Source: Eledone cirrhosa
Lineage: Eukaryota
Direction of reading: 5' to 3'
NCBI GenBank assembly: GCA_964016885.1
Contig: OZ024764.1
Location: 4,588,001-4,652,000, forward strand
Length of the DNA stretch: 64,000 nucleotides
Shown here in pieces: positions 14,727-58,144 of the stretch. Under the pieces are notes generated by a model. That model saw nothing but the letters and a program-made list of their open reading frames with translations, had not been told where the DNA came from and searched no databases. Within the stretch, counting starts at the first letter, position 1. The number at the start of each line of letters is the position of its first letter. The position numbers and the translations under genes are program-made.

Positions 14727-14742
14727 GGACATAAAATGATGA

Positions 14743-14788
<46 letters not shown>

Positions 14789-15489: not shown

Positions 15490-15576
15490 CTATTATCATG
15501 TTTCCTCCTATTGTGTTGTAATGTTCACACCATTTTTATTTTATTTATTTATTTATTTATTTATTTAGTACCACTG

Positions 15577-16552: not shown

Positions 16553-16673
16553 TGATGGAACCTGACTCTGGTATTTGAAGCTCCTCAGATATATTCTAAC
16601 ATGTTGATGGTTTATGATCACTAACCTTCCATTAAAGTGTATCTCTCTCTCTTTCTCTCTCCACCCACACCAG

Positions 16674-16772
16674 ACCACCTGTTCGGTTGATGGTAACACG
16701 ATGACCCAGACCCAGAAGGGATCACACGACAGTGTTTTGACCAGGGAGTTGAAAGACGACAAAATGGTTATG
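16674..16772 (+). CDS. FABP: FABP exon 3
   Basis: cag|ACCACC...GTTATG|gtaagt, 99 nt, phase 0/0. Encodes TTCSVDGNTMTQTQKGSHDSVLTRELKDDKMVM. Confidence 0.93.
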
Positions 16773-16791
16773 GTAAGTTTTGGTGAACTCT

Positions 16792-16842
16792 CTACTAATA
16801 CTACTACTTATACTACTGCTACTGTTACTACTACTACCATCT

Positions 16843-16875
<33 letters not shown>

Positions 16876-17018
16876 AAACCATCACCACCACTACTACCAC
16901 CACTACTACTACTACCACTACTACTACTACCACCACCACCACTACTACTACCACCACTACCACTACTACTACCACCACCACCACCACTATTACTACCACC
17001 ACTACTACTACCACCACC
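16792..17018. repeat. (ACT)n/(ACC)n microsatellite
   Basis: Seen directly. Confidence 0.95.
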
Positions 17019-17041
17019 GATTCTGTGAAATGATTTCATTA

Positions 17042-17390
17042 TTACGGGGTCGATAAAATAAAGTACCAGTAATACACTGGGGTAATTGCTGGCCTTGTGC
17101 CTAAAGTAGAAACAATTATTATTTATTTCATTATTACTTATTTAATTCTGAGTTAACTTTGCCTTTCATCCTTACGGGGTCGATAAATTAAAGTACCAGT
17201 AATGTACTGGAGTAATTGCTGGCCTTGTGCCTAAAGTAGAAACAATTATTATTTATTTCATTATTACTTATTTAATTCTGAGTTAACTTTGCCTTTCATC
17301 CTTACGGGGTCGATAAAATAAAGTACCAGTAATGTACTGGGGTAATTGCTGGCCTTGTGCCTAAAGTAGAAATGATTATTATTTATTTTA
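17042..17390 (+). repeat. 130-bp tandem repeat (~2.7 copies) of a Nin-domain-like SINE 3' segment
   Basis: ttacggggtcgataaa recurs at 17042, 17172, 17302. gcctttcatccttacggggtcgataaaataaagtaccag also occurs in single copies near 24220, 34095-34230 and 42720-42910. Confidence 0.8.
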
Positions 17391-17461
17391 TTTATTTATT
17401 AATAATAATGATACTAATATCTGTTTCATTAACTCTCACTCTCTTTTGTCTCCCACACCAG

Positions 17462-17515
17462 GTCCTCAATGTTGCTGATATTGTGTGTACAAGAATCTAC
17501 AAACGCGTTGAATAA
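17462..17515 (+). CDS. FABP: FABP exon 4 (last coding exon)
   Basis: cag|GTCCTC...GAATAA, 54 nt including the stop. Encodes VLNVADIVCTRIYKRVE*, with the conserved R-x-Y ligand-binding motif. Confidence 0.95.
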   Translation, partial: VLNVADIVCTRIYKRVE

Positions 17516-27093: not shown

Positions 27094-27293
27094 NNNNNNN
27101 NNNNNNNNNNNNNNNNNNNNNNNNNNNNNNNNNNNNNNNNNNNNNNNNNNNNNNNNNNNNNNNNNNNNNNNNNNNNNNNNNNNNNNNNNNNNNNNNNNNN
27201 NNNNNNNNNNNNNNNNNNNNNNNNNNNNNNNNNNNNNNNNNNNNNNNNNNNNNNNNNNNNNNNNNNNNNNNNNNNNNNNNNNNNNNNNNNNNN
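27094..27293. other. assembly gap (200 N)
   Basis: Run of n. Confidence 1.
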
Positions 27294-29809: not shown

Positions 29810-32300
29810 TTACCATATGTTTCCCTCCACTGCTGGGTGTGGATATGTTTTATTTAAGTAATAAGTTCTGACAGTCAGCCATACAGACACATGACAAAAA
29901 AAAAAAAAATTATAATTTCAAGGGAGGTAACTCTATATTTTGCCATTTAATTCTCTCCCTAGTTGGGTGTGGGTGTGTTTTATTTATGTATTATGTTCAG
30001 GCAGGCTGCCTTACAGGCATGATATGAGTGCGCTTTGTCGTATCTATATATTTATTTATGTTGTGTACAGTGCTCAGGTGCACTACAACTCATCAAAGGT
30101 GCATGTATAGTACATAGAATAATGTAAAAATGTCAGAGAAGTGAATAGTGTATGAGTCACGATATACATGTGTATGTGTGTATAGAGGGGGAATATCAGG
30201 TATAGTGTTGGAGAATTTCAGGAAGTATGGAGGTTTTAAAGGATGCAGTGTCTCGACAGCTGACAACTGATGCAGGTAGTTTGTTCCATGGAGGTTTTAA
30301 AGGATGCAGTGTCTCGACAGCTAACAACTGATGTAGGGAGTTTGTTCCATGGAGGTTTTAAAGGATGCAGTGTCTCGACAGCTAACAACTGATGCAGGTA
30401 GTTTGTTCCATGGAGGTTTTAAAGGATGCAGTGTCTCGACAGCTAACAACTGATGCAGGTAGTTTGTTCCATGGAGGTTTTAAAGGATGCAGTGTCTCGA
30501 CAGCTAACAACTGATGCAGGTAGTTTGTTCCATGGAGGTTTTAAAGGATGCAGTGTCTCGACAGCTGCTGACAACTGATGCAGGTAGTTTGTTCCATGGA
30601 GGTTTTAAAGGATGCAGTGTCTCGACAGCTAACAACTGATGTAGGGAGTTTGTTCCATGGAGGTTTTAAAGGATGCAGTGTCTCGACAGCTGCTGACAAC
30701 TGATGCAGGTAGTTTGTTCCATGGAGGTTTTAAAGGATGCAGTGTCTCGACAGCTAACAACTGATGTAGGGAGTTTGTTCCATGGAGGTTTTAAAGGATG
30801 CAGTGTCTCGACAGCTAACAACTGATGCAGGCAGTTTGTTCCATGGAGGTTTTAAAGGATGCAGTGTCTCGACAGCTAACAACTGATGTAGGGAGTTTGT
30901 TCCATGGAGGTTTTAAAGGATGCAGTGTCTCGACAGCTAACAACTGATGTAGGGAGTTTGTTCCATGGAGGTTTTAAAGGATGCAGTGTCTCGACAGCTA
31001 ACAACTGATGCAGGGAGTTTGTTCCATGGAGGTTTTAAAGGATGCAGTGTCTCGACAGCTGCTGACAACTGATGCAGGTAGTTTGTTCCATGGAGGTTTT
31101 AAAGGATGCAGTGTCTCGACAGCTAACAACTGATGCAGGTAGTTTGTTCCATGGAGGTTTTAAAGGATGCAGTGTCTTGACAGCTAACAACTGATGGAGA
31201 TAGTTTGTTCCATGGAGGTTTTAAAGGATGCAGTGTCTCGACAGCTAACAACTGATGCAGGGAGTTTGTTCCATGGAGGTTTTAAAGGATGCAGTGTCTC
31301 AACAGCTAACAACTGATGTAGGGAGTTTGTTCCATGGAGGTTTTAAAGGATGCAGTGTCTCGACAGCTAACAACTGATGCAGGGAGTTTGTTCCATGGAG
31401 GTTTTAAAGGATGCAGTGTCTCAACAGCTAACAACTGATGCAGGGAGTTTGTTCCATGCTTCAGCAACTCTGAGTGGGAAAAAATGTTTCCAAAAGTCAT
31501 AGGGAGCTGTGCTGTTTTCTGACTTTGTAGGCATGGCCACGTGTGTTAGACACATGGAAATCAAAAAGGTACTCAGGGTTGTTTTTGGCAAGATGGTTAA
31601 TAATTTTGTGTGTGTTTACCAAGTCAATTGCCAGACGCCGGAGCTTTAATGTATCCATGCCCAGGGAAGCAGGGCGCTCAGAGTATGGTAGATGCCTGAT
31701 GGAGGGTATTCGCTTGGTTGCACATCTCTGAACAGTTTCCAGGCGGTCAATGTTCTGAGCAAGATAGGGGTTCCAGACTGGTGATGCAAATTCTAAGTGT
31801 GGCCGCACCATAGCTATATACAGCTTTAAATAGATATCTGGAGAGCGGCTGACAAAGGTCTTGCTGAGTGATGCTAAGACAGCCTCGGCCTTCTTGACAA
31901 TTTTAGAGACGTGCTTCGTCCAACGCAAATCGCTGCTGACCGTTATGCCCAGGTCACGTTCACAAGAAGACTTCTTGATATTAGTGCTGTGGGGGGAGTA
32001 TGTGGACGCTGGGTTTTTCCTCCCAAAATTCATGGTGGTGCACTTGTCCACAGCTAGCTTGAGTTGCCAGTCTGAGATCCATTGTTGCATTGTGTCCAGG
32101 TCAGACTGCAAGCAAGATCTATAGTGTTCAGGATCTGTCCTTTTTATCTCAAGGTACAGCTTGATGTCATCTGCATATTTCAGTACCGTGAAATTCCTCA
32201 AGTTGGCATCTATGTCATTAATATATGCCACAAACAAAAGGGGCCAAGAACAGATCCCTGTGGTACACCAGATGACATCTCATATGGCTGAGGAGCAGAT
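29810..32300 (-). mobile_element. CR1/Jockey-group LINE, 5'-truncated, interrupted by an internal tandem expansion
   Basis: SGVPQGSVLGP (frameshifted), FVAYINDI...KYADDIKL...LQSDLD...ERDLGI...LYIAMVRPHLEFASPVWNPY...LETVQRCATK...TRGHAYK, then WNKLPASVV. The 3' UTR runs to about 29810. Confidence 0.9.
30227..31458. repeat. 61-bp minisatellite, ~20 copies, derived from the LINE ORF2 end
   Basis: Unit catggaggttttaaaggatgcagtgtctcgacagctaacaactgatgcaggtagtttgttc; minus strand reads WNKLPASVVSCRDTASFKTSM. Confidence 0.93.
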
Positions 32301-33000: not shown

Positions 33001-34094
33001 TGCACATATATATATATATATTACACACACATATATATATGTATGTGTGTGAATTTAATAAGGTATTTCAATGGATTTATTTATTTACTTTGGTACGAAA
33101 CTACAGGTGTGAGACATATGAACGAACGGAATAGTGATCTAGCTCTGTATCTCTCTTATACAACATGGCTACCGTCTCTGAAACATGTCCGTGATGTTGT
33201 TACTGTGATATCTCTTCTCAAGGACGAGGCACTAGGCTGCTTCTTTGGCTGGCTTCCTTGTGTGTGTGTGTGAGGGACCCATCCTCCACCACACGCACCC
33301 TTACAGTAATACAAACGAAAGTCGCTGCTCCGGAAGGGGTTTTATGACAAATATATATATATATATAGCCGCTGAAAGGAGTAAATCCAAGGACAAGACA
33401 GACTTTGTTTGGCCGGTGTTGCTGGGTTTCCTTCTGCTGGGGAGAAAGACCCTTTACCCCTGTCTATACATCCCAGGAAGAAGGAGCTGGCTCCGGGGAT
33501 AACCCTTCATCCATTAAGGACAACATACACGGAACTTCTGGCCGGTGTTTGGTTAGTCAACTCCTGGTGTAGAGGGATACCCGCCTCTTGTGTAACTCTG
33601 TAGATATTACAGAAAGATCGAATCCCGTTCCGGACGGAAGGAGTTGCAAGGGGACAGACAATATATGTAGATTAGCCCCTCCAATCACCAACGACAACAT
33701 ACCCCGAGAACTTGACCGGTGTTCCTGGAATATCTCTTACATCAGACAGCCCCCCCCCCCCCCCAGGGGTCACAGCCAGGTGTTGGATATAAACTCCAAG
33801 GACATAATAGTTGGGTGTAGCAGGATAAAGTTGGGTATCGTGGAGTAGCCCGATCCCCCCCTTTTCGGCCCCCGAGGGGTTTCACAGCTGTTGTCCTCCA
33901 TCAATATCCACCACAAGGTCAGTCAACTTTTTTTATAATCTTTCTCCCTTCTCTGATTTTTAATGATGTATCGTAATTATATAGTATATATACATTATAT
34001 ATATATATATATATATATACACTATAAGTATATAAACTATATATATATACATACACTATATATATACATTGTATATATATATAATGGTTTCTTA

Positions 34095-34232
34095 TATAGG
34101 CACAAGGCCAGTAATTTGGGGGGAGGGGAAAGTCGATTAAATCGACCCCAGTGCGTGACTGGTACTTTATTTTATCGACCCCATAAGGATGAAAGGCAAA
34201 GTTAACCTCGTCGGCGGGATTTGAACTCAGAT
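34095..34232 (-). mobile_element. Nin-domain-like SINE fragment
   Basis: Reverse complement gagttcaaatcccgccgacgaggttaactttgcctttcatccttatggggtcgataaaataaagtaccag. Confidence 0.7.
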
Positions 34233-34470
34233 CATATTGTATATATATATAATGCATATCTATAATGTATGTATATATGTGTTTATGTAATGTGTATATA
34301 TATATATATATCATCGATTAACGTCCATCTTCCACGCTAGCATGGGTTTGACGGGTCCTATTTTAAGGCAACACGTGTGTAGTGTGTATATATACATGTG
34401 TATCGTGTATATATACATGTGTGTGTAGTGTGTATATATATATATACATGTGTATCGTGTATATATACAC

Positions 34471-34520
<50 letters not shown>

Positions 34521-34844
34521 GTGTATGTAGTGTGTATAGACATGTGTGAAGGCGCGTAGCGTGATGGTTAGGGTATGACAATGGTAAAGTGGTGAGTTCG
34601 ATTCCCAGGCGGTGTCCTCTACATCTCTCACGGTAGATATATATGTGCATCACTCTAACTGACGGAGTACCAGTTATATTGTGTGTGTGTGTATATATAT
34701 AATGTATATTGCTGTATATATGATGTATGTGGGTATACACATTATATAAATATACGTGTGTACATATATATATATATATATATGTGTGTTTGTATATATA
34801 TATATATATATGTCTGTGTGTGTGTGTATATATATATATATGTC

Positions 34845-34887
<43 letters not shown>

Positions 34888-35004
34888 ATATATATATATA
34901 CACATGGTTTTATAAATATAGTTTCCATTTGTTAATATATCGTATATATATGTGTGTGTATATATATATATGTCTGTGTGTGTGTATATATATATATATA
35001 TGGA

Positions 35005-35335
35005 GGCGCATCGCTTAGTGGTTAGAGCATTGGCCTTGCAATCGAAAGGTTGTGAGTTCAATTCTCAGACCAGGTGATGTGTTGTTTCCTTGAGCAAGAC
35101 ACTTTATTTCACATTGCTCCAGTTTACTCAGCTGTAGAAATGAGATGATAGGGACTGGGGTCCCTATCATTCCACTGCAAAGTGGACGTGGAGGTGCCAC
35201 GACAAAAAGCACCCAGCACTCACTGTAAATGAGGTTGGTGTTAGGAAGGGCATCCAGCTGTAGAAATCAAGCCATAATCGGTTCCTGTCCCACCCTTGCA
35301 AGCAGGGAAAAGTGGACGTAAAATGATGATGATGA
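35005..35335 (+). mobile_element. full-length tRNA-derived SINE
   Basis: Near-identical to 3098-3430. Confidence 0.88.
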
Positions 35336-35724
35336 TATATATATGTGTGTGTGTATATATAGATATATATATATACGATATCGTATTTTTACTCCAATAA
35401 TTTGTTGAGTGCTTTATAATAGTTATAAAAATATTTGCTTGTTGTATCCCAACAATTTAAATAGAACTTCTACACACATATATATATATATGTGTGTGTG
35501 TGTTGGGTCTCCGTCGGTTCCAACGAGAGTTCCCGTTATCTGACCAACAACACTTTGCTCTAGAAATTAACGTGCAAGTGGCCGAGCATTCAACCGACAT
35601 AATTCTTAGGGAGATTCAGCCGTGAAGCAGTTCTTTTCAGAAAATAAATATAGATTATTGCTTTGGGACGAATATGTTACATAACGATAACCGGTTTCTA
35701 TACACACACACACACATCTATATA

Positions 35725-35769
<45 letters not shown>

Positions 35770-36049
35770 GAAAAGTATAGAAGTTATGGTAGCAAGAAGC
35801 CAACAGTATTCCATAATATATAATATATATATGTATATATATACCATTTATGTTAGGTTTTTTGCCAGTAGAATTGGTGATTCTAGTTAGTTAACGATTA
35901 AAATAAAGCACTCGACGTTATATAATCCGTCGTAGATGTGGTGCCCCATGGATGGGACAGGAACAGAGTTAAGTATTGATTAAAAACAACAGGAGGCTGG
36001 ATCGGAAACTTTCTTTAGTATTTTAATTCCGCGAAAATGTTTTTAATGA

Positions 36050-36098
<49 letters not shown>

Positions 36099-36170
36099 TG
36101 TATGTATGTATGTATGTATGTATGTATGTATGTATGTATGTATGTATGTATGTATGTGTGTGTGTGTATA

Positions 36171-36217
<47 letters not shown>

Positions 36218-36933
36218 ATATGTATATATATGTATATATTGTGTGTGTGTCTATATGTGTATATGTGTGTGTAATATATATGTGTATATATATTATGTAT
36301 ATGAGTATATATATATGTATGTATGTGTATATATTTATTTATGTGTGTGTATATATTTATATATGTGTGTATATATATGTGTGTGTGTGTATATATATGT
36401 GTGTATATATATGTATATATATATATATGTGTATATATATATGTGTGTGTGTATATATATGTATATGTGTGTATATATGTGTATGTATATGTGTGTATAT
36501 ATATGTATATATATATGTGTATATATATATATTTATATATATATATGTGTGTATATACATATACAAAAGATGTTCTGCCCTACGGTTAAGCTTTTACCGT
36601 TGTGATAGCAAATGAGAAGTATATATATCTGCTCTACTGCGTCTGCCACTTCCATTTTGACTGACTGTAAATAAAGACAGGCACTCACACCTTTTAATGC
36701 CGTGGTTGAGAGAGAGGTGATGAAATATCTACCTGCTTTACATCAGACCACATCCAGCGTTCTCCAGGATTCAATCAGAGGTAACCACAGTTCGTAAGGT
36801 ACTCAATACTCGTTCCTATTATCCACTCTACTACCCTAAGTATTGAGTACTTTGGTGCGTTATGGTCCATCTGGTTCCTTACCACATTTCCTTCGTTATA
36901 TATATATATATATATAAAGTTTAATATAGAAAT

Positions 36934-36985
36934 GACTTCTACAGGACTAGATCTGTTTCATTCAAAAGAAATCATCAGGGCTTTC
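36934..36985 (-). ncRNA. hammerhead motif, stem I 5' strand broken at the inversion junction
   Basis: Minus strand reads gcc CTGATGA tTTC tttt GAAt GAAA CAG atctagtc CTG TA gaagtc. Confidence 0.5.
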
Positions 36986-37030
36986 CTGACGATTTCTGTC
37001 GAATGAAACAGTTCTAGTCCTGTAGAAGTC
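36979..37030 (+). ncRNA. type I hammerhead ribozyme motif
   Basis: GGCTTTC CTGACGA tTTC tgtc GAAt GAAA CAG ttctagtc CTG TA GAAGTC; NUH=GUA; stem II is short. Confidence 0.6.
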
Positions 37031-37142
37031 ATTTCTATATTAAACTTTATATATATATATATATATATAAAACGAAGGAAATGTGGTAAGGAACCAGATG
37101 GACCATAACGCACCAAAGTACTCAATACTTAGGGTAGTAGAG

Positions 37143-37211
37143 TGGCTATCATCGAAATATATATAGCAGTAAATAAAGGATTATGAGTTCATGCAATTGA
37201 CTTATGTTTCG

Positions 37212-37251
<40 letters not shown>

Positions 37252-37478
37252 AACGAGTAGGACCCCGACGGCTGAGCTCAAGCCGTTTCGACGGCTAATT
37301 CTGGACGAATTAGTCTAATTCAGTCCAGAATTAGCCGTCGAAACGGCTTGAGCTCAGCCGTCGGGGTCCTACTCGTTCCTATATATATATATATATTATA
37401 TATAGTGACGAAACATAAGTCAATTGCATGAACTCATAATCCTTTATTTACTGCTATATATATTTCGATGATAGCCAT
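37143..37478. repeat. second long inverted repeat abutting the first
   Basis: tggctatcatcgaaatatatatagcagtaaataaagg...ggaacgagtaggaccccgacggctgagc is mirrored around ~37311-37318. Confidence 0.9.
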
Positions 37479-37505
37479 TGAATGGCTATGACCTCATCAG
37501 GCAGT
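37450..37505 (-). ncRNA. type I hammerhead ribozyme motif with palindromic loop III
   Basis: Minus strand reads ACTGC CTGATGA GGTcATAGCCAT tca ATGGCTATcATC GAAA T atat A TA GCAGT. Confidence 0.75.
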
Positions 37506-37559
37506 TAGTCAGTTCTTAGATATGCCAGCTCTGTGTGTATAGGGTTGATGGTATCAGAG

Positions 37560-37887
37560 CCTGTGTCCCTCCGACATTCGCGGACCCGGTTATTCGCGAG
37601 ATTTTCCTTAAAACCTAACTAATTGTTCGTGGAAACTACCACATATTCGCGGAATCGTAAATATATTTTTATGTAAAAGTTTTTCGTTGCTTTTTTTTTT
37701 GTTGACAATATATACAATTTTTCACGCATTTTAACGCTAAATTATTAACGATATACCGTATTTCCCGGCCTATATTTTATATTGTTTTGAAGTTTATAGG
37801 CATTTTTAGGGACCACGTCCAATATTCGCGGTTTTTCATGTTCGTGAGTGTTCAAGTAACGTAACCCTCGCGAATACCGGGGAACAA

Positions 37888-37891
<4 letters not shown>
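37560..37891. mobile_element. Tigger/pogo-like MITE
   Basis: Repeated ttcgcg(g/a) subterminal motifs; right end cgcgaataccggggaacaaatg followed by TA. A related fragment lies at 13385-13465. Confidence 0.5.
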
Positions 37892-37935
<44 letters not shown>

Positions 37936-38246
37936 TAATGAATTGTAACTGTTTTAGTATAGAATGTGTTGTTGTACATTGATACTTCGTTGCTACTTAT
38001 ATATATATATATATATATATATATCCGGCTGAGGACATGCTGGGGGACTGCCCTTAATAGTATATAATTTTTATTTAATATGGAAAAAATATAAGGAAAA
38101 GGAATTGAAAATGGAACTAGAGTCTAAGAATATTTATTTACTTTACCAGTTTCATAGTTCTTATGATTATCAAAAGTAAAATTGAGATGTGTGTGTGAAT
38201 ATTATATGTATACAGACCCCACAGACACAATATTCTATTTATAATG

Positions 38247-38657
38247 TATTAGCAGTGGTACCCGGCGTTGCACGGGATAAGGTATTTTGGAAGGCAAGCC
38301 GCCAACAGACTTAATGCGGGCCCTAGGCCATAAAAATGGATTTTCTTTGCTCACGGTATGAAGAAGAGACTGACTAATACATAGTTACAATTTCAAGGAA
38401 ATCGGTCTGACGTAACGCCTCAAAAAACCCCTAAAAGGCTGAAAAAACTGCGCTTTTTCACCTAATTCCACTTTTTGATCCCCTAGGATCAAAAAGTGGA
38501 ATTTTTTAATGTGCATAACACTCCCTGAAACAAAAGTAATACACATGTAAAGTTTGAAAAAGATCGGTTGGGTACTTCTCGAGTTTTAGGGATTCAAACT
38601 CACACACACACACACACACACACAGACAGACATCTTCAGTTTTATATATATATAGAT
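38247..38657 (+). mobile_element. Helentron-associated (HINE/DINE-1-like) non-autonomous element
   Basis: 5' tattagcagtggtacccggcgttgcacggg hairpin; 3' aagtttgaaaaagatcggttg...(ca)n cagacagac...tatatatagat layout; internal hairpin at 38465-38503. Confidence 0.6.
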
Positions 38658-39040
38658 TGTAGGAGTGGGGTCCCTATCATTAAAAGTCCTGAAAAAGCAC
38701 CTATGAGATAGCTCAGACTTATGTAGGTTGAGCTGGCCTCCTACAAGGCTGTCTGTCTCTCATAGGAGGTTTCCTGGTTGTTGTAATGATAGGGACCCCA
38801 GTCCTATCATGAAAAACCTGAAATGAAGCAACTGGCTCAAGAATACAATGTGCTGCCTGACCTAAGGTTTGATCTTATGACCTTATGTTTATGAGCGCAG
38901 CACACTAACCATTGAACCTACACTACACCACCACCTCACACTACAACACCACCACCACACACTACTACACCACCATCACAATACACCACCACCACCATGC
39001 ACTACAACACCACCACGCACTACAACACCACCATTGCATA

Positions 39041-40279
39041 TATTCAGATAAATAATATCATATCTACCCCACCTCCAAACCTGGCCCTTTATAACCCCTA
39101 AAATCTCTATTTCAGATGTATCGCCATATCTACCCCACCTCCAAACCTGGCCCTTTATAACCCCTAAAATCTCTATTTCAGATGTATCGTCATATCTACC
39201 CCACCTCCAAACCTGGCCCTTTATAACCCCTAAAATCTCTATTTCAGATGTATCGTCATATCTACCCCCACCTCCAAACCTGGCCCTTTATAACCCCTAA
39301 AATCTCTATTTCAGATGTATCGCCATATCAACCCCACCTCCAAACCTGGCCCTTTATAACTCCTAAAATCTCTATTTCAGATGTATCGTCATATCTACCC
39401 CCACTTCCAAACCTGGCCCTTTATAACCCCTAAAATCTCTATTTCAGATGTATCGTCATATCTACCCCCACCTCCAAACCTGGCCCTTTATAACCCCTAA
39501 AATCTCTATTTCAGATGTATCGTCATATCTACCCCCACTTCCAAACCTGGCCCTTTATAACCCCTAAAATCTCTATTTCAGATGTATCGCCATATCTACC
39601 CCACCTCCAAACCTGGCCCTTTATAACCCCTAAAATCTCTATTTCAGATGTATTGTCATATCTACCCCCACCTCCAAACCTGGCCCTTTATAACCCCTAA
39701 AATCTTTATTTCAGATGTATCGCCATATCAACCCTACCTCCAAACCTGGCCCTTTATAACTCCTAAAATCTCTATTTCAGATGTATCGTCATATCTACCC
39801 CCACTTCCAAACCTGGCCCTTTATAACCCCTAAAATCTCTATTTCAGATGTATCATCATATCTACCCCCACCTCCAAACCTGGCCCTTTATGACCCCTAA
39901 AATCTCTATTTCAGATGTATCGTCATATCTACCCCCACTTCCAAACCTGGCCCTTTATAACCCCTAAAATCTCTATTTCAGATGTATCGTCATATCTACC
40001 CCCACTTCCAAACCTGGCCCTTTATAACCCCTAAAATCTCTATTTCAGATGTATCGCCATATCTACCCCACCTCCAAACCTGGCCCTTTATAACCCCTAA
40101 AATCTCTATTTCAGATGTATCGCCATATCTACCCCACCTCCAAACCTGGCCCTTTATAACCCCTAAAATCTCTATTTCAGATGTATCGTCATATCTACCC
40201 CCACTTCCAAACCTGGCCCTTTATAACCCCTAAAATCTCTATTTCAGATGTATCGCCATATCTACCTTACCTCCAAACA
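39041..40279 (+). repeat. 66/67-bp tandem repeat containing the AFG3L2 acceptor and exon start (18 copies of tttcag|ATGTA)
   Basis: The AG ends at 39115, 39181, 39247 ... 40114, 40180, 40247. Confidence 0.93.
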
Positions 40280-40434
40280 TGTAACTGCTCCACCACGAAC
40301 ATTGTGGTCCCTAATGAAGGACTGGCCTCTGCTACGCAACAGCAATGTACCAAAGGGTTTTGAGAAATACTTCCCTGGAGCTAAGAAGACCCCACCACCA
40401 AAAGAGGCCCCACCCAGTGGTGCCAAACCAAAAG
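40248..40434 (+). CDS. AFG3L2: AFG3-like protein 2 (m-AAA protease), first coding exon visible
   Basis: cag|ATG...AAAG|gtatac. Encodes MYRHIYLTSKHVTAPPRTLWSLMKDWPLLRNSNVPKGFEKYFPGAKK...; PKGFEKYFP is the conserved AFG3L2 N-terminal motif. The ATG may be the start or an internal Met. Confidence 0.85.
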
Positions 40435-40536
40435 GTATACTTTTCTCTCTCTCTCTCTCTCTCTCCCTATTTAATCCACAAACTCCCTTTATTTCATGTT
40501 TTTTCAAGGTTTGATATTTTCTATCCTTTTCATATT

Positions 40537-42728: not shown

Positions 42729-42945
42729 GTACCAGTAATACACTGGGTTATTGCTGGCCTTGTGCCAAAAGTAGAAACAATTATTATTATTAGGAGGTGG
42801 ATTGGTAGAGTGTCAGCCCTTACAGGGTCGATAAAATATAGAACCAGTAATGCACTGGGGTCCATTTAGTCGGCTTTCTCCTCCCTCAAAATTGCTGGCC
42901 TTGTACCTATAGAAATTCTTCTTTTTCTTTTTATCAATGTTATAG

Positions 42946-43024
42946 AGGGCCGAAAGTTACCCCCACCTCCCTTCAAACCATCCGGTGGGGACAAGAAGAT
43001 GGAGTTTTCATTCAGCTTCAACAA
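42946..43024 (+). CDS. AFG3L2: AFG3L2 exon
   Basis: Polypyrimidine tract then tag|AGGGCC...AACAA|gtaagt, 79 nt, phase 1 to 2, which links the flanking exons in frame. Encodes (E)GRKLPPPPFKPSGGDKKMEFSFSFN(K). Confidence 0.8.
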
Positions 43025-43276
43025 GTAAGTCAGTCTTTCCTATATATTTCATCATCACCATCATCATCATCACCAATAGCACTACCCCTACCACTATCAA
43101 CACTACCCCTAACACCATCACAACCGCTACCACTATATACACTACCCCTACCACTATCAACACTACCCCTACCACTATCAACACTACCCCTAACACAACC
43201 CCTATCACTAACAACACTACCCCTAACACAACCCCTATCACTATCAACACTACCCCTAACACCATCACAACCCCTA

Positions 43277-44720
43277 CCACTTTACAGTGTGGACTGGGTA
43301 CTATTTGTTGTGACACCTACATGACCACTTTACAGTATGGACTGGGTCCTATTTGTTGTGACACCTACATGACCACTTTACAGTGTGGACTGGGTACTAT
43401 TTGTTGTGACACCTACATGACCACTTTACAGTATGGACTGGGTCCTATTTGTTGTGACACCTACATGACCACTTTACAGTGTAGACTGGGTACTTTTTGT
43501 TGTGACACCTACATGACCACTTTACAGTGTAGACTGGGTACTTTTTGTTGTGACACCTCCATGACCACTTTACAGTGTAGACTGGGTACTTTTTGTTGTG
43601 ACACCTCCATGACCACTTTACAGTGTGGTCTGGGTACTTCTTGTGATACCTACATGACCACTTTACAGTGTGGACTGGGTACTATTTGTTGTGACACCTA
43701 CATGACCACTTTACAGGGTGGACTAGGTACTTTTTGTTGTAACACCTACATGACCACTTTACAGTGTGGACTGGGTACTATTTGTTGTGACACCTACATG
43801 ACCACTTTACAGTGTGGACTGGGTACTATTTGTTGTGACACCTACATGACCACTTTACAGTGTGGACTGGGTCCTATTTGTTGTGACACCTACATGACCA
43901 CTTTACAGTGTGGACTGGGTACTATTTGTTGTGACACCTACATGACCACTTTACAGTGTGGACTGGGTCCTATTTGTTGTGACACCTACATGACCACTTT
44001 ACAGTGTGGACTGGGTCCTATTTGTTGTGACACCTACATGACCACTTTACAGTGTGGACTGGGTACTATTTGTTGTGACACCTACATGACCACTTTACAG
44101 TGTGGACTGGGTACTATTTGTTGTGACACCTACATGACCACTTTACAGTGTGGACTGGGTCCTATTTGTTGTGACACCTACATGACCACTTTACAGTGTG
44201 GACTGGGTCCTATTTGTTGTGACACCTACATGACCACTTTACAGTGTGGACTGGGTCCTATTTGTTGTGACACCTACATGACCACTTTACAGTGTGGACT
44301 GGGTACTATTTGTTGTGACACCTACATGACCACTTTACAGTGTGGACTGGGTACTATTTGTTGTGACACCTACATGACCACTTTACAGTGTGGACTGGGT
44401 ATTTTTTGTTGTGACACCTACATGACCACTTTACAGTGTAGACTGGGTACTTTGTGTTGTGACACCTACATGACCACTTTACAGTGTGTACTGGGTACTA
44501 TTTGTTGTGACACCTACATGACCACTTTACAGTGTGGACTGGGTACCTTTTGTTGTGACACCTACATGACCACTTTACAGTGTGGACTGGGTACCTTTTG
44601 TTGTGACACCTACATGACCACTTTACAGTGTGGACTGGGTACTTTTTGTTGTGACACCTACATGACCACTTTACAGTGTGGACTGGGTACTTTTTGTTGT
44701 GACACCTACATAACCACTTT
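43277..44720. repeat. 48-bp minisatellite, ~30 copies (same unit as 8654-9428)
   Basis: accactttacagtgtggactgggtactatttgttgtgacacctacatg. Confidence 0.93.
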
Positions 44721-44916: not shown

Positions 44917-45192
44917 ATCATCATCAGCATCATTTTACGTCCCTTGTCCCTGCTTGCATGGGTTAGATGGGTCCTATTCAGCACAGCATCTCTCCACTTG
45001 TCACGGTCCTTCGTCATCTTCTCTGTGAGCTTTAGCGATCTGAGGTCTGCGCTCACCACCTCCGCCCATGTTTTTTGTGGTCTTCCTCTACTGCGTCTTC
45101 TTTCTACTGGGACTTCTTGGCACTTCTTTACCCAGCGGTCATCCTCCATGCGCATCACATGTCCATACCAACACAGTCGTCTCTCCCGCACC
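44917..45192 (-). mobile_element. RTE LINE 3' fragment
   Basis: VRERRLCWYGHVMRMEDDRWVKKCQEVPVERRRSRGRPQKTWAEVVSADL...DRDKWR followed by a (GAT)n tail. Confidence 0.88.
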
Positions 45193-48100
45193 TGTCTTAA
45201 TCCAAACACCCCTCCGCTTAATCCAACCTTACCTTGCACCTGTCTTAATCCAAACACCCCTCCGCTTAATCCAACCTCCCCCTGCACCTGTCTTAATCCA
45301 AACACCCCTCCGCTTAATCCAACCTTACCTTGCACCTGTCTTAATCCAAACACCCCTCCGCTTAATCCAACCTCCCCCTGCACCTGTCTTAATCCAAACA
45401 CTCCTCCGCTTAATCTAACCTCCCCCTGCACCTGTCTTAATCCAAACACCCCTCCGCTTAATCCAACCTCACCTGCACCTGTCTTAATCCAAACACCCCT
45501 CCGCTTAATCCAACCTGACCTGCACCTGTCTTAATCCAAACACTCCTCCGCTTAATCTAACCTCCCCCTGCACCTGTCTTAATCCAAACACCCCTCCGCT
45601 TAATCCAACCTCCCCCTGCACCTGTCTTAATCCAAACACCCCTCCGCTTAATCCAACCTGACCTGCACCTGTCTTAATCCAAACACTCCTCCGCTTAATC
45701 CAACCTCCCCCTGCACCTGTCTTAATCCAAACACCCCTCCGCTTAATCCAACCTCCCCCTGCACCTGTCTTAATCCAAACACTCCTCCGCTTAATCCAAC
45801 CTGACCTGCACCTGTCTTAATCCAAACACCCCTCCGCTTAATCCAACCTCCCCCTGCACCTGTCTTAATCCAAACACCCCTCCGCTTAATCCAACCTCAC
45901 CTGCACCTGTCTTAATCCAAACACCCCTCCGCTTAATCCAACCTCACCTGCACCTGTCTTAATCCAAACACCCCTCCGCTTAATCCAACCTCACCTGCAC
46001 CTGTCTTAATCCAAACACCCCTCCGCTTAATCCAACCTCCCCCTGCACCTGTCTTAATCCAAACACTCCTCCGCTTAATCCAACCTCACCTGCACCTGTC
46101 TTAATCCAAACACCCCTCCGCTTAATCCAACCTCCCCCTGCACCTGTCTTAATCCAAACACCCCTCCGCTTAATCCAACCTCCCCCTGCACCTGTCTTAA
46201 TCCAAACACCCCTCCGCTTAATCCAACCTCCCCCTGCACCTGTCTTAATCCAAACACCCCTCCGCTTAATCCAACCTCCCCCTGCACCTGTCTTAATCCA
46301 AACACCCCTCCGCTTAATCCAACCTCACCTGCACCTGTCTTAATCCAAACACCCCTCCGCTTAATCCAACCTCACCTGCACCTGTCTTAATCCAAACACT
46401 CCTCCGCTTAATCCAACCTCACCTGCACCTGTCTTAATCCAAACACCCCTCCGCTTAATCCAACCTCCCCCTGCACCTGTCTTAATCCAAACACCCCTCC
46501 GCTTAATCCAACCTCCCCCTGCACCTGTCTTAATCCAAACACCCCTCCGCTTAATCCAACCTCCCCCTGCACCTGTCTTAATCCAAACACCCCTCCGCTT
46601 AATCCAACCTTACCTTGCACCTGTCTTAATCCAAACACCCCTCCGCTTAATCCAACCTCACCTGCACCTGTCTTAATCCAAACACCCCTCCGCTTAATCC
46701 AACCTCCCCCTGCACCTGTCTTAATCCAAACACTCCTCCGCTTAATCCAACCTGACCTGCACCTGTCTTAATCCAAACACCCCTCCGCTTAATCCAACCT
46801 CCCCCTGCACCTGTCTTAATCCAAACACCCCTCCGCTTAATCCAACCTGACCTGCACCTGTCTTAATCCAAACACCCCTCCGCTTAATCCAACCTTACCT
46901 TGCACCTGTCTTAATCCAAACACCCCTCCGCTTAATCCAACCTTACCTTGCACCTGTCTTAATCCAAACACCCCTCCGCTTAATCCAACCTCACCTGCAC
47001 CTGTCTTAATCCAAACACCCCTCCGCTTAATCCAACCTCCCCCTGCACCTGTCTTAATCCAAACACCCCTCCGCTTAATCCAACCTGACCTGCACCTGTC
47101 TTAATCCAAACACCCCTCCGCTTAATCCAACCTCCCCCTGCACCTGTCTTAATCCAAACACCCCTCCGCTTAATCCAACCTCCCCCTGCACCTGTCTTAA
47201 TCCAAACACTCCTCCGCTTAATCCAACCTGACCTGCACCTGTCTTAATCCAAACACTCCTCCGCTTAATCTAACCTTACCCTGCACCTGTCTTAATCCAA
47301 ACACCCCTCCGCTTAATCCAACCTGACCTGCACCTGTCTTAATCCAAACACTCCTCCGCTTAATCCAACCTCCCCCTGCACCTGTCTTAATCCAAACACC
47401 CCTCCGCTAAATCCAACCTTACCCTGCACCTGTCTTAATCCAAACACCCCTCCGCTTAATCCAACCTCCCCCTGCACCTGTCTTAATCCAAACACTCCTC
47501 CGCTTAATCCAACCTTACCCTGCACCTGTCTTAATCCAAACACCCCTCCGCTTAATCCAACCTCCCCCTGCACCTGTCTTAATCCAAACACCCCTCCGCT
47601 TAATCTAACCTCCCCCTGCACCTGTCTTAATCCAAACACCCCTCCGCTTAATCCAACCTGACCTGCACCTGTCTTAATCCAAACACCCCTCCGCTTAATC
47701 CAACCTCCCCCTGCACCTGTCTTAATCCAAACACCCCTCCGCTTAATCCAACCTCACCTGCACCTGTCTTAATCCAAACACCCCTCCGCTTAATCCAACC
47801 TGACCTGCACCTGTCTTAATCCAAACACCCCTCCGCTTAATCCAACCTCCCCCTGCACCTGTCTTAATCCAAACACCCCTCCGCTTAATCCAACCTCCCC
47901 CTGCACCTGTCTTAATCCAAACACTCCTCCGCTTAATCCAACCTTACCCTGCACCTGTCTTAATCCAAACACCCCTCCGCTTAATCCAACCTCCCCCTGC
48001 ACCTGTCTTAATCCAAACACCCCTCCGCTTAATCTAACCTCCCCCTGCACCTGTCTTAATCCAAACACTCCTCCGCTTAATCCAACCTGACCTGCACCTG

Positions 48101-50643
48101 TCTTAATCCAAACACCCCTCCGCTTAATCCAACCTCCCCCTGCACCTGTCTTAATCCAAACACCCCTCCGCTAAATCCAACCTTACCCTGCACCTGTCTT
48201 AATCCAAACACCCCTCCGCTTAATCCAACCTCCCCCTGCACCTGTCTTAATCCAAACACCCCTCCGCTTAATCCAACCTGACCTGCACCTGTCTTAATCC
48301 AAACACCCCTCCGCTTAATCTAACCTTACCCTGCACCTGTCTTAATCCAAACACCCCTCCGCTTAATCCAACCTCCCCCTGCACCTGTCTTAATCCAAAC
48401 ACTCCTCCGCTTAATCCAACCTGACCTGCACCTGTCTTAATCCAAACACCCCTCCGCTTAATCCAACCTCCCCCTGCACCTGTCTTAATCCAAACACCCC
48501 TCCGCTTAATCCAACCTGACCTGCACCTGTCTTAATCCAAACACCCCTCCGCTTAATCTAACCTTACCCTGCACCTGTCTTAATCCAAACACCCCTCCGC
48601 TTAATCCAACCTGACCTGCACCTGTCTTAATCCAAACACCCCTCCGCTTAATCCAACCTGACCTGCACCTGTCTTAATCCAAACACCCCTCCGCTTAATC
48701 CAACCTCCCCCTGCACCTGTCTTAATCCAAACACCCCTCCGCTTAATCCAACCTGACCTGCACCTGTCTTAATCCAAACACCCCTCCGCTTAATCCAACC
48801 TCCCCCTGCACCTGTCTTAATCCAAACACCCCTCCGCTTAATCCAACCTGACCTGCACCTGTCTTAATCCAAACACCCCTCCGCTTAATCCAACCTGACC
48901 TGCACCTGTCTTAATCCAAACACCCCTCCGCTTAATCCAACCTCCCCCTGCACCTGTCTTAATCCAAACACCCCTCCGCTTAATCCAACCTCACCTGCAC
49001 CTGTCTTAATCCAAACACCCCTCCGCTTAATCCAACCTGACCTGCACCTGTCTTAATCCAAACACCCCTCCGCTTAATCCAACCTGACCTGCACCTGTCT
49101 TAATCCAAACACCCCTCCGCTTAATCCAACCTCCCCCTGCACCTGTCTTAATCCAAACACCCCTCCGCTTAATCCAACCTGACCTGCACCTGTCTTAATC
49201 CAAACACCCCTCCGCTTAATCCAACCTTACCTTGCACCTGTCTTAATCCAAACACCCCTCCGCTTAATCCAACCTCCCCCTGCACCTGTCTTAATCCAAA
49301 CACTCCTCCGCTTAATCCAACCTGACCTGCACCTGTCTTAATCCAAACACCCCTCCGCTTAATCCAACCTCCCCCTGCACCTGTCTTAATCCAAACACCC
49401 CTCCGCTTAATCCAACCTCCCCCTGCACCTGTCTTAATCCAAACACTCCTCCGCTTAATCCAACCTGACCTGCACCTGTCTTAATCCAAACACCCCTCCG
49501 CTTAATCCAACCTTACCCTGCACCTGTCTTAATCCAAACACCCCTCCGCTTAATCCAACCTCCCCCTGCACCTGTCTTAATCCAAACACTCCTCCGCTTA
49601 ATCCAACCTGACCTGCACCTGTCTTAATCCAAACACCCCTCCGCTTAATCCAACCTTACCTTGCACCTGTCTTAATCCAAACACTCCTCCGCTTAATCCA
49701 ACCTCACCTGCACCTGTCTTAATCCAAACACCCCTCCGCTTAATCCAACCTTACCTTGCACCTGTCTTAATCCAAACACCCCTCCGCTTAATCCAACCTC
49801 CCCCTGCACCTGTCTTAATCCAAACACCCCTCCGCTTAATCCAACCTTACCTTGCACCTGTCTTAATCCAAACACCCCTCCGCTTAATCCAACCTTACCC
49901 TGCACCTGTCTTAATCCAAACACCCCTCCGCTTAATCCAACCTTACCTTGCACCTGTCTTAATCCAAACACCCCTCCGCTTAATCCAACCTCCCCCTGCA
50001 CCTGTCTTAATCCAAACACTCCTCCGCTTAATCCAACCTGACCTGCACCTGTCTTAATCCAAACACCCCTCCGCTTAATCCAACCTCCCCCTGCACCTGT
50101 CTTAATCCAAACACCCCTCCGCTTAATCCAACCTCCCCCTGCACCTGTCTTAATCCAAACACTCCTCCGCTTAATCCAACCTTACCCTGCACCTGTCTTA
50201 ATCCAAACACCCCTCCGCTTAATCCAACCTTACCTTGCACCTGTCTTAATCCAAACACCCCTCCGCTTAATCCAACCTTACCCTGCACCTGTCTTAATCC
50301 AAACACCCCTCCGCTTAATCCAACCTCCCCCTGCACCTGTCTTAATCCAAACACCCCTCCGCTTAATCCAACCTCCCCCTGCACCTGTCTTAATCCAAAC
50401 ACCCCTCCGCTTAATCCAACCTCCCCTGCACCTGTCTTAATCCAAACACTCCTCCGCTTAATCCAACCTCCCCCTGCACCTGTCTTAATCCAAACACCCC
50501 TCCGCTTAATCCAACCTTACCCTGCACCTGTCTTAATCCAAACACCCCTCCGCTTAATCCAACCTCCCCCTGCACCTGTCTTAATCCAAACACCCCTCCG
50601 CTTAATCCAACCTCCCCCTGCACCTGTCTTAATCCAAACACCC
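45188..50643. repeat. 47/48-bp minisatellite, ~114 copies
   Basis: gcacctgtcttaatccaaacacccctccgcttaatccaacctccccct, with an internal cttaatccaa duplication. It begins exactly at the 5' truncation point of the RTE fragment. Confidence 0.95.
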
Positions 50644-50723: not shown

Positions 50724-50886
50724 AAGCAACCGTGGCCCCTTTATGGATCCTAATGACCCAAACAGTCGTATCCTGCTGGGAGTGTTGACTGGAGTGGGTC
50801 TGGTCAGTTTAGTGGGTCTTTACCAGACGCAGTACAGAGAGATCACCTGGAAGGAGTTCCTGTCTCAGCATCTAACACGAAATACG
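50724..50886 (+). CDS. AFG3L2: AFG3L2 exon (TM1 and start of the intermembrane domain)
   Basis: cag|AAGCAAC...AATACG|gtgagt, phase 2 to 0. Encodes SNRGPFMDPNDPNSRILLGVLTGVGLVSLVGLYQTQYREITWKEFLSQHLTRNT, including the REITWKEF motif. Confidence 0.93.
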
Positions 50887-52085: not shown

Positions 52086-52207
52086 ATATGTGTATATGTC
52101 CATAGGTTGAGAAGCTGGAAGTGGTATACAATGTATATATAGTATTATGTATGTATGTATGTATGTGTATAATATATATATAGTATGTATACAATGTATG
52201 TATGTAT

Positions 52208-52239
<32 letters not shown>

Positions 52240-52503
52240 TTTCTGTGTCATGTCCATAGGTTGAGAAGCTGGAAGTGGTATACAATGTATATATAGTATT
52301 ATGTATGTATGTGTATAATATATATATAGTATGTATACAATGTATGTATGTATGTATGTGTGTATATATATATATATATATTTTCTGTGTCATGTCCATA
52401 GGTTGAGAAGCTGGAAGTGGTATACAATGTATATATAGTATTATGTATGTATGTATGTATGTGTATAATATATATATAGTATGTATACAATGTATGTATG
52501 TAT

Positions 52504-52535
<32 letters not shown>

Positions 52536-52658
52536 TTTCTGTGTCATGTCCATAGGTTGAGAAGCTGGAAGTGGTATACAATGTATATATAGTATGTATG
52601 TATGTATGTATGTATGTGTATAATATATATATAGTATGTATACAATGTATGTATGTAT

Positions 52659-52690
<32 letters not shown>

Positions 52691-53759
52691 TTTCTGTGTC
52701 ATGTCCATAGGTTGAGAAGCTGGAAGTGGTATACAATGTATATATAGTATTATGTATGTATGTATGTATGTATGTATGTGTATAATATATATATAGTATG
52801 TATACAATGTATGTATGTATGTATGTGTGTATATATATATATATATATATTTTCTGTGTCATGTCCATAGGTTGAGAAGCTGGAAGTGGTATACAATGTA
52901 TATATAGTATTATGTATGTATGTATGTATGTATGTGTATAATATATATATAGTATGTATACAATGTATGTATGTATGTATGTGTGTATATATATATATAT
53001 ATATATTTTCTGTGTCATGTCCCTAGGTTGAGAAGCTGGAAGTGGTATACAATGTATATATAGTATGTATGTATGTATGTATGTATGTATGTGTATAATA
53101 TATATATAGTATGTATACAATGTATGTATGTATGTATGTGTGTATATATATATATATATATATTTTCTGTGTCATGTCCCTAGGTTGAGAAGCTGGAAGT
53201 GGTATACAATGTATATATAGTATTATGTATGTATGTATGTATGTATGTGTATAATATATATATAGTATGTATACAATGTATGTATGTATGTATGTGTGTA
53301 TGTATATATATATATATATATATTTTCTGTGTCATGTCCATAGGTTGAGAAGCTGGAAGTGGTATACAATGTATATATAGTATTATGTATGTATGTATGT
53401 ATGTGTATAATATATATATAGTATGTATACAATGTATGTATGTATGTATGTGTGTATATATATATATATATATATTTTCTGTGTCATGTCCATAGGTTGA
53501 GAAGCTGGAAGTGGTATACAATGTATATATAGTATGTATGTATGTATGTATGTATGTATGTGTATAATATATATATAGTATGTATACAATGTATGTATGT
53601 ATGTGTGTATATATATATATATATATATTTTCTGTGTCATGTCCCTAGGTTGAGAAGCTGGAAGTGGTATACAATGTATATATAGTATGTATGTATGTAT
53701 GTATGTATGTATGTATGTGTATAATATATATATAGTATGTATACAATGTATGTATGTAT

Positions 53760-53795
<36 letters not shown>

Positions 53796-53985
53796 TTTCT
53801 GTGTCATGTCCCTAGGTTGAGAAGCTGGAAGTGGTATACAATGTATATATAGTATTATGTATGTATGTATGTGTATAATATATATATAGTATGTATACAA
53901 TGTATGTATGTATGTATGTGTGTGTATATATATATATATATATATTTTCTGTGTCATGTCCCTAGGTTGAGAAGCTGGAAGTGGT
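52081..53985 (+). repeat. ~142-167-bp tandem repeat containing the AFG3L2 acceptor and the first 20 exon nt (13 copies)
   Basis: atgtcc(a/c)tag|GTTGAGAAGCTGGAAGTGGT, with AG ending at 52105, 52259, 52401, 52555, 52710, 52870, 53026, 53183, 53343, 53495, 53648, 53815, 53965. Confidence 0.93.
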
Positions 53986-54040
53986 CAACAAGAAGTGGGT
54001 CCGAGTAAAGATGATGCCAGGATCTCAGGTGGACAGTTCT
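53966..54040 (+). CDS. AFG3L2: AFG3L2 exon
   Basis: tag|GTTGAG...AGTTCT|gtaagt, 75 nt, phase 0/0. Encodes VEKLEVVNKKWVRVKMMPGSQVDSS (compare vertebrate VDRLEVVNKRFVRV). Confidence 0.93.
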
Positions 54041-55170: not shown

Positions 55171-56296
55171 TTGACCCTTTAATGTTCAAACTGGCCAAAA
55201 CCGGCCAGAATTCTCTACCTCTTTCTGTTGAAACTGGCTGTAACTGGTCGCTCAAACTGATGTTAAGGTATTGTTCTCAAAATAAATACTTTCAAAATCT
55301 CATAGATTCGATATTATGTGAGGTAAAGCCTTTACTGTGAAAATACAATAGTATATATAGAGTAATGTAGATGTTATGTGAGATATTATGTGAGGTAAAG
55401 CCTTTACTGTGAAAATACAATAGTATATATAGAGTAATGTAAATGTTATGTGAGATATTATGTGAGGTAAAGTCTTTACTGTGAAAATATAATAGTATAT
55501 ATAGAGTAATGTAAATGTTATGTGAGATATTATGTGAGGTAAAGACTTTACTGTGAAAATACAATAGTATATATAGAGTAATGTAAATGTTATGTGAGAT
55601 ATTATGTGAGGTAAAGCCTTTACTGTGAAAATATAATAGTATATATAGAGTAATGTAAATGTTATGTGAGATATTATGTGAGGTAAAGCCTTTACTGTGA
55701 CAATACAATAGTATATATAGAGTAATGTAAATGTTATGTGAGATATTATGTGAGGTAAAGCCTTTACTGTGAAAATACAATAGTATATATAGAGTAATGT
55801 AAATGTTATGTGAGATATTATGTGAGGTAAAGTCTTTACTGTAAAAATACAATAGTATATATAGAGTAATGTAAATGTTATGTGAGATATTATGTGAGGT
55901 AAAGCCTTTACCGTGATAATATAATAGTATATATAGAGTAATGTAAATGTTATGTGAGGTAAAGCCTTTACTGTGACAATACAATAGTATATATAGAGTA
56001 ATGTAAATGTTATGTGAGGTAAAGCCTTTACTGTGAAAATACAATAGTATATATAGAGTAATGTAAATGTTATTGGAGATATTATGTGAGGTAAAGCCTT
56101 TACTGTGAAAATACAATAGATATATAGAGTAATGTAAATGTTATGTGAGATATTATGTGAGGTAAAGCCTTTACTGTGAAAATACAATAGTATATATAGA
56201 GTAATGTAAATGTTATGTGAGATATTATGTGAGGTAAAGCCTTTACTGTGAAAATATAATAGTATATATAGAGTAATGTAAATGCTAAAGGGTTAA
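55171..56296 (+). mobile_element. complete piggyBac-like MITE with internal 72-bp satellite (~14 units)
   Basis: ttga-CCCTTTAatgtt ... aatgcTAAAGGG-ttaa: CCCTTT terminal inverted repeats with a TTAA-type target site. Confidence 0.72.
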
Positions 56297-56713
56297 ATGA
56301 TAGACACGAGTCCTATCATATTGTTACAGCTTACATCTATATAGGGTTAGCAGACCTCCTTACAAGGCTGTCTCTCATTGGCGGTTTCGTGGCTGTTTTA
56401 ATGATAGGGACCCTAGTCCTAGCCTTAAAAGCAACGTGAAATGACGAACCTTGCTTAAGAAAACAATGATCCATTGAGGAATTGAAGCGAAGACCTTTTG
56501 TGAGTTTAACACACTAACCACTAGACCACACAACTTCACAATAGCTTCTTTTGTTGGCCTCAATGACTGAAGTAATGGGGGACAACACAGAGGGATTTAC
56601 ATTGAGGGGACATCACTGAAGTAAAAACAACAAGGACCCCAGTCATAAATAGAATTAATAATACATCTAGTAGGCACCTGTTAACCACTATACCACCACC
56701 CACCCACTTCTGC

Positions 56714-57181
56714 CACACTATAAAGTGGTCATGTAGGTGTCACAACAAACAACACCCAGTCTACACTGTAATGTGGTCATGTAGGTGACACAACAAAAAG
56801 TACCCAGTCCACACTGTAAAGTGGTCATGTAGGTGTCACAACAAAAAGTACCCAGTCCACACTGTAAAGTGGTCATGTAGGTGTCACAACAAAAAGTAGC
56901 CAGTCCACACTGTAAAGTGGTCATGTAGGTGTCATGTCAAAAAGCACCCAGTCCACCCTGTAAAGAGGTCGCGTAGGTGTCACAACAAAAGGCACCCAGT
57001 CCACACTGTCAAGTGGTCATGTAGGTGTCACAACAAAAGGCACCCAGTCCACACTGTAAAGTGGTCATGTAGGTGTCACAACAAAAAGCACCCAGTCCAC
57101 ACTGTAAAGTGGTCATGTAGGTGTCACAACAAAAAGCACCCAGTCCACACTGTAAAGTAGTCATGTAGGTGTCACAACAAA
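56714..57181. repeat. 48-bp minisatellite, ~10 copies, opposite orientation to 43277-44720
   Basis: cacactgtaaagtggtcatgtaggtgtcacaacaaaaagtacccagtc. Confidence 0.9.
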
Positions 57182-58019: not shown

Positions 58020-58144
58020 AGCATCATATGGTTTAACATTGGAAGTGTGGAGGCTTTTGAAAGGAACCTGGAAAACGCTCAGTTAGAGATGAATATTGAA
58101 CCTGCGAACTTTGTCAATGTTGTCTACAGGACAGAAACAGAATT
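58020..58144 (+). CDS. AFG3L2: AFG3L2 exon
   Basis: cag|AGCATC...GAATT|gtgagt, 125 nt, phase 0 to 2. Encodes SIIWFNIGSVEAFERNLENAQLEMNIEPANFVNVVYRTETE, including the WFNIGSVxxFERNL motif. Confidence 0.96.

Follow-up and report, generated by a model that had tools for sequence, protein, structure and literature searches.

On the forward strand of the window (the whole 64,000-nucleotide stretch of Eledone cirrhosa DNA that was analysed) lies the gene for AFG3L2, an identity that had been proposed from the sequence and is borne out by protein comparisons. Its exon 2 (40248–40434; 187 nt, starting with ATG and followed by a GT donor at 40435) encodes PKGFEKYFP and shows 81 per cent identity to O. 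bimaculoides AFG3-like protein 2 (E-value = 8.9e-24), with proteins of O. sinensis, O. vulgaris, and Argonauta in the same cluster; a PDB search with the exon 2 peptide gave 0 matches. Five exons follow (42946–43024, 50724–50886, 53966–54040, 58020–58144, and one from 62303, the 3' end of which is uncertain, at 62394 by script and at 62390 by reading). All of exons 3–7 in the window have AG/GT ends, and exons 2–7, when joined, are identical to the O. bimaculoides protein in 218 of 239 aligned columns. Contigs of one run (X4) additionally join exon 2 to exon 3 (42946–43024) and to the 3' end of an upstream exon (33886–33917, with a GT donor at 33918). The intron between this upstream exon and exon 2 (33918–40247; 6330 nt, GT...AG) holds the array that is the subject of this report.

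Also on the forward strand is a gene (13502–17515) that, judged by its sequence motifs, is probably fatty-acid-binding-protein-like (FABP-like). Three of its exons lie at approximately 13502–13674, 16674–16772, and 17462–17515, and its first exon was not found in the window. A 200-base assembly gap (27094–27293), situated between the FABP-like gene and AFG3L2, could account for a further, missing upstream exon of AFG3L2.

Anatomy and proposed origin of the acceptor array

A 67-bp tandem array (39058–40278; 18.4 copies with 95 per cent matches and a score of 2211 in TRF) takes up the last part of the 6330-nt intron and reaches into exon 2. It contains 18 acceptors, whose AGs end at 39115, 39181, and so on to 40180 and 40247. 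The 17 full units that separate them (39116–40247) measure 66 bp in seven cases and 67 bp in ten. Both AG and ATG are unbroken in all 18, and the ctctatttcag-type motif by which the repeat was first recognized is exact in 14 of the 18 copies. The original prediction thus described the layout correctly: a 66/67-bp unit with an acceptor and an ATG occurs in 18 copies, the penultimate acceptor (40180) lies 67 nt upstream of the last (40246–40247, the acceptor used), and only the last copy runs into the PKGFEKYFP exon. That only the last copy reaches the exon follows geometrically whenever a tandem duplication spans an acceptor.

Each unit consists of approximately 34 exon-like bases and 32 intron-end bases; the former are identical to AFG3L2 exon 2 at 31 of 34 positions, a likeness that exceeds the first 18 bases. 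The composition of the array is 8 per cent G, with ~40 per cent GC around it, and no 16-mer of the unit was found elsewhere within the 64-kb window. The 17 full units comprise eight distinct sequences, are 0–7 edits apart, and have common states that are absent from the exon. They also form a higher-order repeat of six units (400 bp): units six apart are most alike (mean distance of 1.73 versus 2.44–3.08 edits), and TRF also reports a 400-bp period, which points to duplication of a six-unit block.

An array of this kind might be an artefact of assembly, either absent from the animal or inflated in copy number. It is known from the assembly alone, its copy number is an assembly-based figure (the repeat junction was not seen in the contigs of runs X1–X4), and the difference between 66 and 67 bp is one of homopolymer length, a typical long-read error. 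However, unit length is linked to a C/T variant within the unit (6/0 versus 1/10; Fisher test, P-value = 5.7e-4, a descriptive figure, as the units are related by descent), which speaks against homopolymer errors. Random errors would produce neither this tie to a point variant nor the six-unit pattern, and a decayed copy at the edge of the array (see below) is present in other DNA contigs. We consider an artefact very improbable. Because repeats were skipped and records filtered in mapping, the 29 contigs (X1–X4) over 40170–40444, none of which covers 40170–40198, are uninformative in this regard; likewise, a wider mapping of X1–X4, with bins 39188–39635 and 39860–40083 lacking depth, does not inform on the array or on the use of its 17 upstream acceptors (decoys).

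At its 5' edge, the array carries a decayed nineteenth copy, with an AG ending at 39047 and no ATG, after which come a unit tail and then the first of the 18 intact acceptors (39032–39115 altogether). The tail of the decayed copy has the same changed states as the units, and it is the unit that carries the changed states, because exon 2 keeps the residues of its orthologue across the stretch that resembles the unit. The edge segment is also matched by a loose end of diverged contigs from runs X1 and X3. These contigs differ from the window at 24 of 229 bases (~10 per cent diverged), and we therefore assign them to a paralogue. In them, the 5' flank of the array is followed by a single unit tail and then by the exon, which corresponds to an unexpanded layout; the flank match covers 28 of 30 letters with one 5-base gap, was aligned by eye, and comes from contigs whose assembly could hide a loop.

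From these sequence comparisons, we hypothesize that the probable seed of the array was an early duplicate of the junction, since decayed, and that growth from it probably took two steps. The early duplication would have inserted, one unit upstream, a copy of the acceptor with approximately 34 exon bases, which would later have decayed. The decayed copy may then have mispaired with the exon at a decamer common to both, CATATCTACC, to yield a hybrid unit whose first 9 bases would match the present exon and whose tail would come from the decayed copy. Slippage or unequal exchange would subsequently have enlarged the array, with at least one six-unit block duplication. A rare view of how such arrays begin comes from the decayed copy at the edge, taken together with the unexpanded paralogue.

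Among the contigs of runs X1–X4 over 40199–40443 are also several that carry diverged exon 2 sequence, whole or in pieces, from other places; one of these copies has a changed start codon and flanking intron, and another a one-base insertion. The depth figures of the diverged copies are ~300–400, versus ~3–8 for contigs of unique intron, depth being no copy number. A likely reading is a multi-copy family into which a fragment of AFG3L2 has been captured.

Use of the last acceptor and the start of translation

A 929-nt contig of run X4 (depth figure of 79) fits 40246–40430 without mismatch. At the loose 5' end of the contig, 32 of 32 bases agree with 33886–33917, after which the window continues with GT; this match occurs once in the window, with 0 matches in 100 shuffles. 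A second X4 contig (493 nt) fits 40405–40434 and 42944–43024, which is the join of exon 2 to exon 3. Run X4 therefore holds spliced sequence; it is probably RNA, and it possibly comes from the project behind the assembly. No contig of runs X1–X3 matches exon 2 at 99 per cent or above. Since the 929-nt contig joins 33917 to 40248, a transcript exists from which the 6330-nt intron is removed via the last of the 18 acceptors, as seen in one contig of one run in one study, contigs being assemblies that drop rare forms.

This join supports the earlier suggestion that the array is tolerated. We consider it quite probable that the AFG3L2 array is a local minisatellite of the junction between intron end and exon start, one that has likely arisen as a by-product of tandem duplication and is tolerated, without function; the weights that we assign to the alternatives overlap in part with this reading.

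At positions −40 to −1, 13 of the 17 decoys have exactly the sequence of the last acceptor and the other four depart from it by one base, so upstream signals cannot decide which acceptor is chosen. Downstream, the last acceptor has a true exon body with a donor at 187 nt; exons starting at the decoys would measure 254–1319 nt and be C/U-rich. GAA and GAR words, which as purine-rich sequences act as splicing enhancers, are absent from the array, whereas exon 2 has 2.1 and 3.7 per 100 nt, respectively. In exon definition, splice sites are selected across the exon, and we infer that the spliceosome passes the decoys and takes the last acceptor by exon definition across the 187-nt exon 2.

Alternatively, RNA structure could hide the decoy acceptors and leave the last one exposed. 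A weak 6-bp hairpin is indeed predicted over the acceptor in some units, but the hairpin sequence is common to the used acceptor too, the array is poor in G (8 per cent), and the predicted folding of four units is not superior to that of shuffled sequence (z = −0.42, with 61 of 200 shuffles equally or more stable). We rejected structure as the selector and give it almost no credence. A recursive (ratchet) splice site was rejected as well, given that the units read AG/ATG and have their first GT at +3. Within the unit, GT is found only at +3 and, in T-type units, also at +8, and so no micro-exon can form from the units; with these GT positions and with stops in all 17 frames, a duplicated cassette or micro-exon array was likewise rejected.

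As the original prediction held, the upstream copies are unproductive: all 17 decoys, including the five that are in frame, reach a stop in 14–83 codons. Any leak to a decoy would presumably be unproductive, through upstream open reading frames (ORFs) if ATG 40248 is the start codon and through a premature stop if a longer form of the protein is made.

Whether the ATG of exon 2 is the start codon had been left as a condition, and for the X4 transcript this condition probably holds, with the addition that relatives also have a longer form. The exon joined to exon 2 has an in-frame TAG at 33846–33848, 69 bases before the donor, and no in-frame ATG; the last ATG before the donor at 33918 is located at 33665 and a stop comes immediately after it. 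ATG 40248 is therefore probably the start codon in this transcript, a reading that requires the first exon to run through 33846 and for which the final 32 bases of the exon were compared with the contig. Judged by its letters, an acceptor at 33887, with 55 per cent pyrimidine upstream, may give rise to a 30-base in-frame internal exon.

Among the isoforms of AFG3L2 (an m-AAA protease subunit) in O. bimaculoides, X2 (770 aa) begins at the exon 2 methionine, as is probable for the X4 transcript, while Octopus and Argonauta proteins, among them the O. bimaculoides isoform X1 (800 aa), have 25–30 residues ahead of it. No counterpart of this leader was found upstream in the window. Specifically, no leader-like exon was found between 17516 and 39047, tblastn searches of the window with the N-termini of six relatives returned nothing credible, searches for additional N-termini yielded nothing more, a degenerate pattern of the leader start has one match in the window versus 2.3 expected, and the best of 442 ATG-to-GT leader candidates scores 2 against the leaders of the relatives. 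The 26 codons before 33917 were also compared with the leaders, as a possible decayed remnant of one, and 7 per cent of 1528 GT positions score equally well. The exon spliced to exon 2, within 33045–33917, has no in-frame ATG, whereas four other octopod species encode a 25–30-residue leader there. E. cirrhosa may have a shorter leader for mitochondrial targeting, or the exon ending at 33917 may be an alternative first exon.

If the array were put to regulatory use, its upstream acceptors would be used at a controlled rate and would cut AFG3L2 output via upstream ORFs or decay, with copy number tuning the effect. Such a role would fit the AG and ATG kept unbroken in 18 of 18 copies, the probable start at ATG 40248, and the reading frame from the nearest decoy ATG (40181), which overlaps the main ATG out of frame (60 codons). 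Nevertheless, a single unit amplified recently (95 per cent matches) would be expected to keep its signals intact, the diverged paralogue without an expanded array points to a young array, and the X4 contig uses the last acceptor. We find regulatory use hard to credit. Just as doubtful is a scenario in which the start codon moved to the exon 2 ATG in this lineage, the array came to lie in a 5'-UTR intron, every decoy used would add upstream ORFs, and acceptor choice, tuned by variable copy number, would act as a dial on the amount of mitochondrial m-AAA protease.

Junction-spanning arrays among the tandem repeats of the window

A second acceptor array had been noted in AFG3L2, and it is real. 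Unrelated to the first, it has a unit of ~155 bp and lies with exon 5 (53966–54040) in the interval 52096–54040; its 13 copies comprise the exon 5 acceptor and 19–20 exon bases, and their AGs end at positions from 52105 to 53965. In this array (52096–53985), each of the 12 decoys has its acceptor followed by six in-frame codons of the exon (18 bases) and then by GTATAC, the hexamer that is also present at the exon 2 donor at 40435. On the basis of this arrangement, the decoys of the second array could act as in-frame micro-exons, unlike those of the array at 39115–40247.

The two arrays in one gene had been taken as a sign that junction amplification recurs. The window is rich in tandem repeats, with 68 per cent of it masked by TRF and 25 minisatellite clusters retained by our filter. 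In a null model, 17 locally born arrays were each collapsed to one unit and placed randomly relative to 18 splice sites of AFG3L2 and the neighbouring FABP gene; eight arrays of dispersed families or of simple sequence were left out. Junctions are spanned by two of the 17 arrays versus 0.42–0.74 expected, approximately 3–5 times the expectation yet within chance (probability of two or more = 0.065–0.166, in a test that depends on the choice of arrays and sites and was run within a window picked for having junction arrays). Recurrent junction amplification is therefore not supported within the window.

Repeats might still arise, or survive, at acceptors more often than elsewhere in this genome, for example through transcription- or splicing-coupled breaks. 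Two of the six AFG3L2 acceptors in the window carry arrays versus 0.4–0.7 expected, and a modest bias, at ~3–5 times the expectation, may exist. Against this, the P-value is 0.07–0.17, 15 of the 17 local arrays span no splice site, and neither the five FABP sites nor the seven AFG3L2 donors are spanned by any. We regard junction-biased amplification, and equally the breaks named as its example cause, as unlikely.

Three other arrays of the window (5261–7177, 30227–31458, and 45181–50643) start at or beside fragments that read like LINE reverse transcriptase or LINE ends, and local amplification is therefore also seeded on the remains of retroelements. Two minisatellite families are dispersed, each in several separate arrays and on both strands: one with a 48/49-bp unit (8653–13182, 43276–44720, and 56713–57181) and one with a 72-bp unit (1623–2030, 15596–16540, and 55310–56284).

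Comparison with known repeats of intron–exon boundaries

Minisatellite-like duplications of intron–exon boundaries have been described in lancelets as 'mirages', with the globin genes BflGb6 and BflGb9 and the genes for Adh3, troponin C, and PGBD5 among the amphioxus hosts (PMC3087553; PMC3902484). According to the sections cited here, the repeat in BflGb6 covers the 3' end of an intron together with the first part of exon 2, AG/GT is kept in many of its copies, and splicing is regular (PMC3087553; PMC3902484). The AFG3L2 array has the same layout, in which the end of an intron is repeated along with the beginning of the exon that follows, and its 66/67-bp unit falls within the range of 10–160 bp given there for mirages. 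As in those accounts, many AGs are kept, the spliced form that was seen is regular, and edge copies stand outside homogenization. Specifically, the repeat is head-to-tail and minisatellite-like (67 bp × 18.4 copies, 95 per cent matches), its unit spans an exon–intron boundary (32 and 34 bases, with the boundary taken from the junction contig), and its copies keep the splice signal (AG in 18 of 18). A regular mRNA from the authentic site is represented by one X4 contig (33917 to 40248), and concerted evolution that excludes edge copies is seen in units 0–7 edits apart inside the array and a decayed copy at its 5' edge. The differences are of host and extent: BflGb6 is described with three or six units, in contrast to the 18 acceptors in this octopod gene, and each copy of the AFG3L2 array carries an ATG that is probably a start codon in the last, a feature by which it departs from the mirages as described in those sections.

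A related phenomenon, 'exon stuttering', was reported for 115 chicken genes, with 1–44 copies and spans of 112–23,555 bp (Hron et al. 2026, PMC12954441). The passages cited here place it on the GC-rich dot chromosomes of birds and in gerbil genes, and within-species length variation is among its three named features (PMC12954441). Clusters of local repeats that differ between introns fill the introns in the avian case, as they do in this window (68 per cent TRF-masked, 25 clusters), and some of the avian repeats include the border of an exon along with the splice site there. The copy numbers and spans given in that report cover those of the AFG3L2 array, whose local origin from its source exon is consistent, within the 64-kb window, with the lack of its 16-mers elsewhere. 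Unlike the GC-rich avian chromosomes, the surroundings of this array have ~40 per cent GC.

Each testable defining feature having been found, the AFG3L2 array is a repeat of the mirage or exon stuttering type, which has already been described. A literature search that covered few subscription journals found no cephalopod report of such a repeat, and our analysis adds an octopod case to the known type.

In the donor-side case of human F7, intron 7 contains a 37-bp VNTR (PMC1557585). As in AFG3L2, identical splice signals stand in tandem and, in the part of that account cited here, only the one that adjoins a true exon body is used. In F7, it is the first copy that is used, and scanning from 5' to 3' can explain the choice; in AFG3L2, simple first-site scanning cannot, because the last acceptor is used. 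With 18 acceptors that have nearly the same upstream signals and the last one chosen, the AFG3L2 array is a natural test of 3' splice-site choice in a cephalopod, and junction reads could measure the weight of exon body and donor distance in that choice.
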